Below, one piece after another: positions 26,200 to 30,115 of a stretch of DNA of 64,000 nucleotides. The notes below the pieces were generated by a model. It was given only the letters and a program-made list of their open reading frames with translations, ran no database searches and was not told the origin of the DNA. How positions within the stretch are numbered: position 1 is the first letter of the stretch; every line of letters begins with the position of its first letter. Made by a program: the position numbers and the translations under genes. This stretch comes from Eledone cirrhosa (lineage: Eukaryota), in assembly GCA_964016885.1 (NCBI GenBank), contig OZ024742.1, positions 86,924,001 through 86,988,000 on the forward strand, given 5' to 3'.

Positions 26200-26525
26200 T
26201 TAATGTATGTATATTATATTTGGCAATATACAGTATGTTTAATTAAACACATTTAGAAGACCATACGCTATCAGTTTTAAAGTAGTGAGTATGTCACTTA
26301 CTTGTTTTCGGCGAAATAAGGGAGATGCGGTGACAGCCTGTTTCACGCTTGCTGGCGTTCATCAGAGCCACGTATTCCCCTGCTTCCGCAGAAAATTATA
26401 GGAGCCGGATTCTAATAGAATTCCAGTAATAATCAGGAGCTGATTATACAGAGCCATTGCCGGTCAAGTAAAAATTAGGTATTAGGATCGGTGCTCTGAA
26501 ATAGCGATGTATACATGAATGTATA
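26200..26525 (-). mobile_element. Single ~320-nt HHR-bearing unit (family B, canonical-core subfamily)
   Basis: Colinear with 29333-29651 (TAATCAGGA..TGATTATACAGAGC..TTGCCGGTCA...GCTCTGAAATAGC.AT). Confidence 0.8.
26326..26370 (-). ncRNA. Type I hammerhead ribozyme, canonical C3:G8 core
   Basis: Minus strand: GGCT-CTGATGA-ACGC(cagcaa)GCGT-GAA-ACAGGCTGT-C; GUC site; stem I decayed. Confidence 0.8.
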
Positions 26526-26620
26526 TATATATATATACATAAGTATATATATCTATATATCTCTCTCTCTATATATATATATGGTATAACTGAAGTCGTA
26601 TATATTAATATAAATATATG

Positions 26621-27026
26621 TATATTGGTAAGCGGAATAGAAAATGCTGACAAATTGTTCACAGTTGAAAAATGGTTTAATTAGGAATAAAAGAGTATTA
26701 GTGATAGTATGGGTTAGTATTCAGTTGTGGTTTTAAGTTTTTAAGTTTTTACCGGTTGCGCATTTCTAAATGCTTTTCAAAAATAATTTTGAGATAGAGT
26801 GTCCGTGCTGTTTGCTCTGATCTGATCAGAGCAAACAGCACGGACACTCTATCTCAAAATTATTTTTGAAAAGCATTTAGAAATGCGCAACCGGTAAAAA
26901 CTTAAAAACTTAAAACCACAACTGAATACTAACCCATACTATCACTAATACTCTTTTATTACTAATTAAACCATTTTTCAACTATGAACAATTTGTCAGC
27001 ATTTTCTATTCCGTTTTCCAATATAT
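26621..27026. repeat. Near-perfect ~200-bp palindrome with a 1-nt spacer at 26823; each arm carries an atypical HHR-like motif
   Basis: ...GTTTGCTCTGATC T GATCAGAGCAAAC...; motif TTGAAAA-GCATTT(ag)AAATGC-GCAA-CCGGT-A at 26866-26896. Confidence 0.92.
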
Positions 27027-27940
27027 AATAACTTGTGTGTTACACCTCTATTCTTTTAACTATATATATATATATATATATATATATATATATATATATA
27101 TATATATATATATATATATATATATATAAATGTAAGTACGTATGTATGTATACGTACATATATATGTATAGAGACGTTTCATTCAAATTCTTATTTTAAA
27201 TGCCGAATCATACTCTGAATTTGTGTTCATAAGAATGTTTACAATTCTATAAGCAGAATCATATGTATTTGTTTGTGTATGAGTAATATATGTGTTTTGC
27301 CGACATCCATGCTGTCAGAGTTGGCATGTTGAATCCGCTCTGGAATCATATGGGATTAGAAGTCACTTAATGGAAAATCATGTTTCTCTCGACAGCTCCC
27401 CATCACCCGTTTTATCAGTGAATTTCCATTATATAGTCCTGCAAGTTATGAATTATTCTCACTCACACTAACAAATTAGAATATTCTAAACTCTAGTGAC
27501 TTCAACTCATCTGGCTGTTCCTTACTAATAATCTATTTCTTGTAAATATAGAATTCATCTTCAACATATTTCTATAATGTCATTTTCGCTGTTTATATTC
27601 AATATTTCAGTATGTGTTATAATCTAACTAATTGTAAAATTTAACGTATTCACAAAATTACATTATTTTAATACAATTAAGATAATGCGGGATTGGAAAT
27701 GTTTGTAATTTTTGGATTGAAATTAGAGACACAAAACACATTTGATAAATTGAAGACTATATCAGAAACTATTTTCTGTTATGTTCGATGAGAACCTATT
27801 AGGTGAAGATCAAGGAAACATTCGAATAAAGATCTCCATTAACCAATGGTAATGTTGCATAGACATCAAACATTATACATATATATATATATATATATAT
27901 ATATATATATATATATATATATATATATATATATATATAT

Positions 27941-28340
27941 ATTGTTGTACTTTGGGAGTGTCATGTTGCCAATAAGAAACACACGCACAATTTGAAACAT
28001 TCAATTTATTATAATAAATTTATAAATTTATGAATTTATAAATTTCTGGTTGGTTGGTTGGTTCAAAAACAAAGAAAAGAATCCCCAGTAACTGAAGAGG
28101 TCACAAAATGTGTGACGAAAGAACTTTGACAATATATACACAACTATTTGGTTGTGGAACCAACCAACCAACCAGAAATTTATAAATTCCTGAATTTATA
28201 AATATATTATAATAAATTGAAGTGAAAGCAGTGGTCCGTGTGTTTCTTATTGGCAACATGACCCTCCCAAAGTATAACAATATCGGTTTCAACACACGAT
28301 TTCAGATAAGGAATCTTGCTAAACAAATTCAGAAACGAAA
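27941..28340 (+). repeat. PLE pLTR fragment with inverted terminus; shorter copy at 36423-36585
   Basis: TTGTT.TACTTTGGGAG.GTCATGTTGCCAATAAGAAACACAC and its reverse complement, followed by TATCGGTTTCAACAC...TCTTGCTAAACAAATTCAGAAA. Confidence 0.8.
28088..28130 (+). ncRNA. Minimal type I hammerhead, slightly decayed
   Basis: GTAA-CTGAAGA-G-GTCACA(aaatg)TGTGAC-GAA-AGAACT-T-TGAC. Confidence 0.7.
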
Positions 28341-28380
28341 TATATATATATATATATATATATATACGTTTTAATATAGA

Positions 28381-28435
28381 TGAGATTCTACAGGGCTAGA
28401 ACTGTTTCATTCTTTAGAAATCATCAGGAATCTCA
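28381..28435 (-). ncRNA. Well-formed type I hammerhead in a ~72-bp insert between two (TA)n runs
   Basis: Minus strand: TGAGATTC-CTGATGA-TTTCT(aa)AGAAT-GAA-ACAG(ttctagcc)CTGT-A-GAATCTCA; 8-bp stem I, GUA site. Confidence 0.85.
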
Positions 28436-28464
28436 AACATATATATATATATATATATATATAA

Positions 28465-29316
28465 AAATTGAATAAAATGAAACGAAATTTCATTTCTCAC
28501 TCTTAGTACGGCACTTACTTAAATGTAAGTATGTATGTATACGTACATACATATATGTATACAGACGTACAATAGTATGTATATATATACATACATGCAC
28601 ACATATATATATATATATATGCACGTATCGGTTTACTGAACATTTATTATAATGCACGATTTGTTTGTTTGTAAACAAACAAACAGCCCGAATTACGCCG
28701 CACAGTGTTTAGGCAACCACGTCACCTTTTTGCTCAACATTGACACAGGAACGATTCACTAGTTTCAAGCTTATTAGCTATCGTCAGCATCGTATAACTT
28801 CCTGCCAGATGGTTGAACGTCTGAAAGTATATACTTTCCTTATGCATATGAACGGCTGAGCAGCCTAATTTGCATATCGAGTGAGTACAGTCGGCCGGGC
28901 ACACCGAAAACGATAAATGGAATAGAATGAAACGAAATTTCGTTTCTCACTCTTAGTACGGCACTTACTTAAATGTAAGTATGTATGTATGTAGACGTAC
29001 ATACAAATATGTATACAGACGTACAGTAGTATGTATATATATACATACATGCACACATATATATATACGCACGTATCGGTTTACTGAACATTTATTATAA
29101 TGCTCGGTTTGTTTGATGTTTACAATAACAAAAACCGACCATTATGATAAATGTTCAGTAAACCGATACGTGCATATATATATGTGTGCATGTATGTATA
29201 TACATACTACTGTACGTCTGTATACATATATGTATGTACATATACATACGTACTTACATTTAAGTAAGTGCCGTACTAAGAGTGAGAAATGAAGTTTCGT
29301 TCATTCTATTCCATTT
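28465..29316 (-). mobile_element. Retrozyme-like family A: ~1.5 tandem units plus an inverted partial copy (29130-29316)
   Basis: Homologous to 14190-15828; HHR at 28752-28792 has CTGACGA but a GUG site (likely inactive). Confidence 0.85.
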
Positions 29317-29332
29317 ATATATATATACATAT

Positions 29333-30115
29333 ATTAGAATTGGAGCTCTGAAATAGCAATATATATATGAATGTATATATAATGTATTTTGCAATAGACG
29401 TTATGCTTAATTAAAAGCATTTTGAAAACCGTATGCTATTGTTTTAGAGTAGTGACAAACTCACTTACTTTAATCTCAGCAAACAAGGGGAGATAAGCCG
29501 ACAAGGCATTGCTTCGCATTTATTGATGCTTATCAAGGCTAACTACTTCCTCCTGTCTACTGAGATCACTGATGTTATATTATTATAGAATTCTAGTAAA
29601 TAATCAGGAAGTGATTATACAGAGCGGTTGCCGGTCAGGCAGAAATTAAAAATTAGAATTGGAGCTCTGAAATAGCAATATATATATGAATGTATATATA
29701 ATGTATTTTGCAATACACCTTATGCTTAATTAAAAGCATCTTGAAGACCGTATGCTATTGTTTTAGAGTAGTGACAAACTCACTTACTTTAATCTCAGCA
29801 AACAAGGGGAGATAAGCCGACGATGCCTTGCTTCGCATTTATTGATGCTTATCAAGGCTAACTACTCCCTCCTGTCTACTGAGATCACTGATGTTATATT
29901 CTTAATGAATTCTAGTAAATAATCAGGAACTGAGTAGTTAGCCTTGATAAGCATCAATAAATGCGAAACAAGGCCTTGTCGGCTTATGCCCCCTTGTTTG
30001 CTGAGATTAAAGTAAGTGAGTTTGTCACTACTCTAAAACAATAGCATACGGTCTTCAAAATGCTTTTAATTAAGCATAAAGTGTATTGCAAAATACATTA
30101 TATATACATTCATAT
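29333..30115 (-). mobile_element. Retrozyme-like family B: two tandem 319-nt units plus an inverted partial copy (29935-30115)
   Basis: ATTAGAATTGGAGCTCTGAAATAGC at 29333 and 29652; minus-strand HHRs at ~29496-29541 and ~29815-29860 (GAAG in place of GAAA). Confidence 0.9.
29940..29984 (+). ncRNA. Type I hammerhead with a U3:A8 variant core
   Basis: AGCC-TTGATAA-GCAT(caataa)ATGC-GAA-ACAAGGCCTTGT-C-GGCT; all three stems perfect, GUC site. Confidence 0.88.

Follow-up and report, generated by a model that had tools for sequence, protein, structure and literature searches.

What does it mean when related ribozymes differ in both members of a base pair of the catalytic core? The question is raised by a 64,000-nucleotide (nt) stretch of Eledone cirrhosa DNA (contig OZ024742.1, positions 86,924,001 to 86,988,000; the whole stretch is called the window below), in which homologous repeat units of about 320 nt carry hammerhead motifs with either C3:G8 or U3:A8 at the pair between core positions 3 and 8. 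The original prediction for this locus saw here a compensatory switch between sister families, kept by selection on catalysis. From the sequences analyzed, we consider it quite probable that the units are non-coding hammerhead repeats, likely a non-long-terminal-repeat (non-LTR) retrozyme mobilized by Penelope elements, that their source elements were likely selected for self-cleavage and that the 3:8 pair was amplified only as C:G or U:A.

Homologous units with two forms of the 3:8 pair

Positions 29359-29700 of the window aligned with 26191-26529 at 73% identity over 346 nt, and a strict motif scan of the window returned four hammerhead motifs compared to 0.45 per shuffle in 20 shuffles. This bore out the claim that the units at 26200 and 29333 are homologous and hammerhead bearing. 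The cores CUGAUGA and UUGAUAA, together with the covarying stems II and III, could likewise be read at all four window copies (Table 1): unit A has ACGC/GCGU as stem II and ACAG/CUGU as stem III, units B1, B2 and B3 have GCAU/AUGC as stem II, and stem III of B3 is ACAAG/CUUGU. The two units are thus related as predicted but are not direct sisters, since intermediate subfamilies fall between them. B1 and B2 were 95% identical when 29333-29617 was aligned with 29652-29936.

Decay has affected three of the four copies in the window. Copy A retains one stem I pair beside the core, where an intact member of the family has four; GAAG (A15.1G) in B1 and B2 places both outside the consensus type I core, and stem III of B2 is also broken. 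The motif of the fourth copy, B3, contains G10.1:C11.1 and a 12-nt palindromic helix III and has lost distal stem I. A construct comprising 29940-29984, which has neither distal stem I nor a dimer partner, would likely under-report activity.

Core conservation and stem covariation across subfamilies

The conserved core (N3-UGA-N-N8-A, GAAA and UH, with 3:8 paired) was intact in B3 of the window and in every one of the 14 subfamily representatives, whose H17 was C, U or A throughout. Covariation was measured over 13 representatives, namely the copies closest to their subfamily consensus; subfamily T was excluded as misaligned, and the set did not comprise subfamilies E, C and D. Of the 169 helix cells, 95.9% were paired, compared to 17-40% in slid controls, and two-sided change was seen in 9 of 13 pairs. 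The prediction that positions 3 and 8 stay paired held in the amplified subfamilies (13 of 13 representatives); the pair 10.1:11.1 was unpaired in 5 of the 13. The stem covariation is not circular, since the search pattern left most stem positions free. A stem I internal loop and a conserved CAANNA loop 2, candidate partners for a tertiary contact between loops 1 and 2, were present. The double change at 3 and 8 had been offered as evidence of selection. Alone, it is weak evidence, because a family divergence of ~25% gives such a change by chance in ~6% of cases (0.25 squared); the stem covariation over 13 subfamilies makes a stronger case.

The sole hammerhead model of Rfam that matched the units at the correct place was Hammerhead_HH9 (RF02275, clan CL00010). 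Its scores lie under the gathering score, and therefore standard Rfam annotation misses the C3:G8 and U3:A8 forms alike. Of the 170 matches in an Rfam scan of the window at threshold, 150 were listed, and none of these was a hammerhead. Matches to microRNA models in the window were rejected, as they sit on microsatellites and inverted repeats.

Genome-wide counts of 3/8 combinations

Combinations at positions 3 and 8 were counted with a descriptor specifying G at 2.3, a four-base stem II, the loop CANNNA and GAAACA, with the reversed pattern as a control. We obtained 1,016 matches for C3:G8 (control, 0) and 4,726 for U3:A8 (control, 2). Unpaired combinations amounted to 65 matches for U3 with a base other than A8 (control, 15) and 84 for C3 with a base other than G8 (control, 1); by eye, the full lists contained 46 U3:G8, 13 U3:U8 and 6 U3:C8 copies and 56 C3:A8, 19 C3:U8 and 9 C3:C8 copies. 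U3:A8 is thus commoner than C3:G8 among the copies counted. The ratio of 4.7:1 holds for this descriptor and not for all hammerheads of the genome, because the C3:G8 subfamilies I (122 matches), T and D are missed by it. As anticipated, canonical searches undercount: a CUGANGA core misses 4,726 of the 5,742 paired descriptor matches (~82%). A pattern with a purine at position 3 gave 210 matches, many of them in one microsatellite array, and the first 100 on the list included neither G3:C8 nor A3:U8 of the family type.

No amplified subfamily with a mismatched 3/8 combination was seen in the descriptor counts or among the mismatches followed up. Only one tight cluster occurred among the latter; its three C3:A8 copies have kilobases of flank in common, which indicates a larger duplication, and it was therefore rejected as such a subfamily. 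The U3:G8 consensus of lineage C proved to be artefactual: it pooled 10 old copies, and 4 of these had been fetched for being mismatched. At two C3:U8 loci, the neighbouring copy retains G8. In the young subfamily B_GCAT, the first 100 of 195 matches comprised 97 U3:A8 copies, 3 copies with a single change at position 3 and no C3:G8 copy. The comparison of copies within a family, which had been put forward as a test, cannot decide on selection, because a single source passes both bases on to its copies, and the mismatches reflect decay after insertion. In loci ranked by query similarity, changes amounted to 4/530 in the core versus 92/9,305 in the flanks for B and to 4/330 versus 162/6,133 for A. 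The core thus decays about as fast as the flanks, and any selection therefore acted on source elements.

History of the pair switch

A profile search of the fetched loci gave 459 matches, corresponding to 361 distinct copies, of which 262 had the core and at least 150 columns and formed 17 groups; one chimeric row was dropped by hand. A first tree, distorted by non-homologous flanks, was rejected. The copy tree was built with the core and stem II masked, from 68 of 126 rows after mismatched rows had been dropped and A thinned; long branches were flagged in the trees. The copy tree requires six switches, four of which are forced by the starred branches, and the consensus tree requires three. 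A single split of the main lineage was only marginally rejected by the approximately unbiased (AU) test (p 0.040 for copies and 0.073 for consensuses). The firm figure is at least two switches, because both states are found on either side of a branch with 100/99 support. The 3:8 pair thus likely switched more than once within this lineage, as judged from these trees. The C3:G8 subfamily I adjoins the young B clade, with a support of 100/98 in the copy tree and 80/82 in the consensus tree; the older U3:A8 subfamilies have the ACGC stem II of A (within 271 matches); and the distant lineage C holds both states.

Repeated switches on a tree of flanks could be mimicked by one or two switches followed by the swapping of ribozyme modules between subfamilies, through template switching or gene conversion. 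The marginal AU support for several switches fits this explanation, as do the frequent rearranged units in insertions and the placement of A relative to the B clade, which differed between trees (one of them with duplicate rows from overlapping loci). We nevertheless regard it as unlikely, since U3:A8 occurs in unlike stem contexts (ACGC/GCGA, GCAU/AUGC and AGGG/CCCA), and since the ACGC and AGGG contexts each hold both states, which the swap of a whole module does not explain.

Returning to repeated switching as the preferred account, in the young clade U3:A8 arose on the same branch as the canonical pair G10.1:C11.1, and most of the clade has a longer helix III palindrome. The success of this clade can therefore not be assigned to U3:A8 alone. 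Separately, we observed an array of near-identical ~310-nt units of the divergent C3:G8 subfamily T at L186:3611-5381 (G000:C1 near 24.876 Mb). This subfamily, in which 10.1/11.1 is U-U and the palindrome of helix III measures 6 nt, appears to have been recently amplified or homogenized.

Architecture of the repeat family

DNA searches of the genome gave 2,159 first-look candidates for B and 2,695 for A, of which 40 were scored for each; the best full-length matches were 93-97% (B) and 89-91% (A) identical to the window copy. The B monomer measures 319 nt with 34% GC. The units are non-coding, with no open reading frame (ORF) of 120 amino acids (aa) within them, and form arrays of up to seven units. 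The 5,742 paired-core matches are genome-wide, and those listed are scattered along the largest contigs. From 30 loci, 4 of which overlapped and were excluded, we obtained 26 B insertions. An inverted 5'-truncated part was present in 17 of them, and (TA)5 was found at most 60 nt away on both sides in 15 and on at least one side in 23, the unit's own end being TA-rich.

The family thus combines traits of retrozymes (dispersed, tandem non-coding units in the range of 150-450 bp with a GC content below 50% and one hammerhead each) with Penelope-like element (PLE) traits (a partial tandem plus an inverted 5'-truncated copy, and a microsatellite target). Judging by these sequence traits, it likely belongs with the non-LTR retrozymes, as a non-autonomous Penelope-type element, since its inverted and tandem structure and its (TA)n targets match the tandem and inverted copies and the microsatellite targets, including (TA)n, reported for PLEs (PMC8557442), and since its size and GC content match the low-GC, non-coding tandem repeats of 150-450 bp described as retrozymes (Cervera & de la Peña 2020, PMC7229834). 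That non-LTR retrozymes derive from Penelope elements and are non-autonomous has been proposed before (Li et al., bioRxiv 10.64898/2026.07.22.740005), and such an origin is also proposed here. The family resembles metazoan non-LTR retrozymes in unit size, low GC content, tandem non-coding organization and one type I hammerhead per unit. It differs from them in that most counted copies are U3:A8, arrays are often short with an inverted truncated copy in (TA)n and helix III is a 6- to 12-nt palindrome.

By analogy with known retrozymes, a read-through transcript of at least two units would allow two palindromic helix III segments to pair, cleavage at each C17 would release a monomer that circularizes, and a Penelope protein with reverse transcriptase (RT) and GIY-YIG domains would copy the monomer circle into TA repeats. 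Genomic copies would afterwards decay roughly neutrally. U3:A8 is a known alternative form of the 3:8 pair.

In the fetched loci, Penelope fragments lie close to some units in an inconsistent arrangement. At seven loci (L006, L007, L014, L020, L021, L027 and L076), 320-nt unit insertions were seen in or beside GIY-YIG-coding Penelope fragments. Related sequence was also present in contigs of four sequencing runs of unrecorded kind, which were not used as evidence.

Comparison with known U3:A8 hammerheads

A natural U3:A8 pair is not novel, since its covariation is already published (PMC3088659, PMC4209133). Perreault et al. 2011 (PMC3088659) reported that C3/G8 covary to U3/A8 in several natural hammerheads and, citing Przybilski & Hammann 2007, that covarying 3/8 pairs are active in vitro. 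Cervera & de la Peña 2014 (PMC4209133) described U3-A8 in the Cercyon PLE of Schistosoma mansoni, with ~1,300 matches once the descriptor was changed. The Cercyon hammerheads share with the present family the U3-A8 core covariation in Penelope-linked animal ribozymes. Unlike the minimal motifs of Cercyon, which have a long helix II and are mostly single copies, the units described here have a 4-bp helix II, a 6-nt loop 2, an extended helix I and a tandem organization, and both states can be traced in one lineage. Likewise, the change from C3/G8 to U3/A8 is known from scattered examples in Perreault et al., whereas thousands of related copies with intermediates are available here. We found no published account of repeated 3:8 switching in a retrozyme lineage or of a natural A13C family in literature searches that covered mostly paper listings and no supplementary alignments. 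New here are the scale, the Penelope family with A13C described below and, likely, the repeated switches with intermediates.

A Penelope repeat family with A13C

The U3:A8 core had been said to recur in unrelated families at 59651 and 26866. The motif at 59651 is a true U3:A8 form; the one at 26866 is not a plain one, since it carries A13C. The latter motif (26866-26900, + strand; inverted copy near 26780, - strand) reads UUGAAAA, GCAU/AUGC and GCAA, i.e., G12-C13-A14-A15.1, and A13 is part of the accepted invariant hammerhead core (PMC3088659). Its 31-nt pattern has at least 6,236 exact matches in the genome, with C13 in 98 of the first 100. The motif lies in the terminal repeat of a Penelope family that is young: its 20 best loci are 97-100% identical (L189-L208 and L221-L230 were fetched). 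At eight loci with two motifs 3-5 kb apart, ORFs of at least 200 aa lie between the motifs, and L225 has a 784-aa ORF with RT and GIY-YIG. Relatives of the motif in the fetched loci retain GAAA with U3:A8.

On these sequences, the A13C family is either an undescribed active variant or one amplified without catalysis. In the latter case, the claim that the motifs are kept for cleavage would be weakened, and the canonical core may be dispensable for Penelope-type amplification. The motif at 26866 argues, if anything, against catalysis being required. It is probably the most surprising item of the region.

The size and youth of this family bear on the proposal that cleavage is no longer needed, the motif being either a structured remnant or a signal recognized by the Penelope protein, with the 3:8 states hitchhiking on the source copy that happens to amplify. 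The similar decay of core and flanks in B and the poor in vitro cleavage reported for minimal PLE hammerheads (PMC4209133) point the same way. The proposal appears highly improbable to us, because 3:8 is a tertiary contact of the active fold, kept through at least two two-base switches without an amplified mismatch, and because stems I to III covary and H17 is never G in the 14 representatives.

Predicted monomer and dimer folds

Helix III was predicted to be unformed in the monomer (P ≤0.02), consistent with the dimer dependence reported for animal hammerheads (PMC4209133), and the self-dimer was predicted to be stable, with -19.5 kcal/mol for B_GCAT. Predicted helix III self-dimer energies were -10 to -20 kcal/mol in the young clade compared to -5 to -14 kcal/mol elsewhere. 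By secondary-structure prediction only, most large subfamilies of either 3:8 state also form a competing helix that traps nucleotides 3-5. In models, the strand of the 5' core and stem I (GCCUUG or GCUUUG) may pair over 6-7 bp with stem III, namely its 5' strand and its loop. Such a self-inhibiting monomer fold was predicted at window positions 29937-29975 and in the subfamily representatives L002, L103, L104 and L181, and it would be retained through the stem changes of the young clade.

U3:A8 might be adaptive if its weaker pairing in the core, combined with G10.1:C11.1, a longer palindrome and a fold of the monomer that traps nucleotides 3-5, made cleavage strictly dimer dependent and protected the circles. 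U3:A8 does occur with G10.1:C11.1 in all six young-clade subfamilies (at this pair, A:U, U-U or A-A is found in A, in I and in the older U3:A8 subfamilies), and a 6- to 7-bp helix joining the 5' core to the 5' strand of stem III was predicted in four of the six (P 0.88-0.99). This tuning is nonetheless very doubtful, since the trapping helix, itself only a predicted secondary structure, was also predicted (4 bp, P 0.93-0.99) in A and I, which are C3:G8 subfamilies, and was weak (P 0.02-0.21) in B0 and in two of the older U3:A8 subfamilies, and since the older U3:A8 subfamilies expanded little (271 matches). The joint scenario, in which the pair flipped back and forth, U3:A8 with G10.1:C11.1, the palindrome and the self-trapping fold formed an adaptive dimer-only switch driving the youngest expansion, and A13C is active in >6,000 Penelope repeats, also seems improbable.

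Other features of the window

The surroundings of the units are AT-rich, and the 64-kb window, part of a 3.0-Gb genome, contains many (TA)n runs, long interspersed nuclear element (LINE) fragments and PLEs (Table 1). The inventory of hammerheads between 26326 and 29984 in the original prediction had overlooked the family D motif at 28787. Family D is distantly related to the 320-nt units; it has a C3:G8 core, its stem II reads UAGC/GCUU, and its helix III is a palindrome of 6 nt. Its three window copies, including intact ones at 14509 and 15337 (both on the - strand), are missed by the genome pattern. The element at 59651 has two ORFs: one of 352 aa, which belongs to no Pfam family, and an open RT ORF of 777 aa, which is 58% identical to an RT plus GIY-YIG protein. 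With its inverted terminal repeat, whose arms are 99% identical, this PLE occupies 58990-63372. Additional CUGANGA...GAAA motifs with plausible stems lie in other repeat families at 13893, 30559 and 58324 (all +). A LINE-like RT element is present in three copies at 18704-22268, 44137-47089 and 49340-52343, which are decayed and 71-81% identical.

Table 1. Hammerhead units and related elements in the window
Feature	Position	Strand	Basis
Unit A, older C3:G8 subfamily, single copy between (TA)n flanks	26191..26529	-	best other genome copies 89-91% identical
Hammerhead A, type I, CUGAUGA, position 3 = 26365, decayed stem I, cut predicted after C 26332	26318..26382	-	
Two Penelope terminal-repeat fragments in inverted orientation; the motif at 26866 combines U3:A8 with A13C	26519..27125	.	
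Family D decayed C3:G8 hammerhead, CUGACGA, position 3 = 28787, G17	28757..28790	-	
Unit B1, young U3:A8 subfamily B_GCAT	29333..29651	-	
Hammerhead B1, UUGAUAA, position 3 = 29536, A15.1G	29486..29553	-	
Unit B2, 5'-truncated, in tandem with B1	29652..29932	-	
Hammerhead B2, UUGAUAA, position 3 = 29855, A15.1G, stem III broken	29805..29872	-	
Unit B3, inverted, 5'-truncated (start ~29931), long (TA)n at end	29931..30121	+	
Hammerhead B3, intact U3:A8 core, position 3 = 29944, predicted cut after C 29980	29940..29984	+	
Penelope-like element whose terminal repeat holds the U3:A8 hammerhead at 59651 (59137 in the inverted copy)	59462..63372	+	

Weight and meaning of the finding

Several points weigh against the view that these units are retrozymes whose sources were selected for self-cleavage through either form of the pair. 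In pairwise mutagenesis of a type III hammerhead, strong rescue was reported only for G3:C8 (PMC9901934), and the tolerance of core changes is reported to vary by scaffold (PMC3884650). In the older U3:A8 subfamilies, A10.1-A11.1 is unpaired. Eight core columns are invariant in 15 consensuses, but partly by circularity, as many subfamilies were found by their core pattern, and the corresponding p of 0.0013 was not relied on. The RF02275 scores are 25.1 bits for A and 21.6 and 19.5 bits for B, compared to a gathering score of 52. An autonomous partner was not found: the unit profile had no match to the Penelope repeats of the window, and no genome-wide partner search was made. The abundance of the A13C repeat suggests that amplification is possible without a canonical core, Naiad PLEs are reported to amplify without hammerheads (PMC8557442), and the rejection of a single main-lineage switch was marginal, as noted above.

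We still favour retrozymes selected at their sources. The thousands of related copies and intermediate subfamilies constitute a natural series for the exchange of a tertiary base pair in a catalytic core, and the same series shows which neighbouring changes accompany that exchange. A descriptor limited to CUGANGA would also miss several Penelope repeat families, so that hammerhead censuses in such genomes are undercounts, a lesson already drawn for Schistosoma in 2014 (PMC4209133). Finally, the A13C family offers a direct test of whether retrotransposition needs the hammerheads of Penelope elements.

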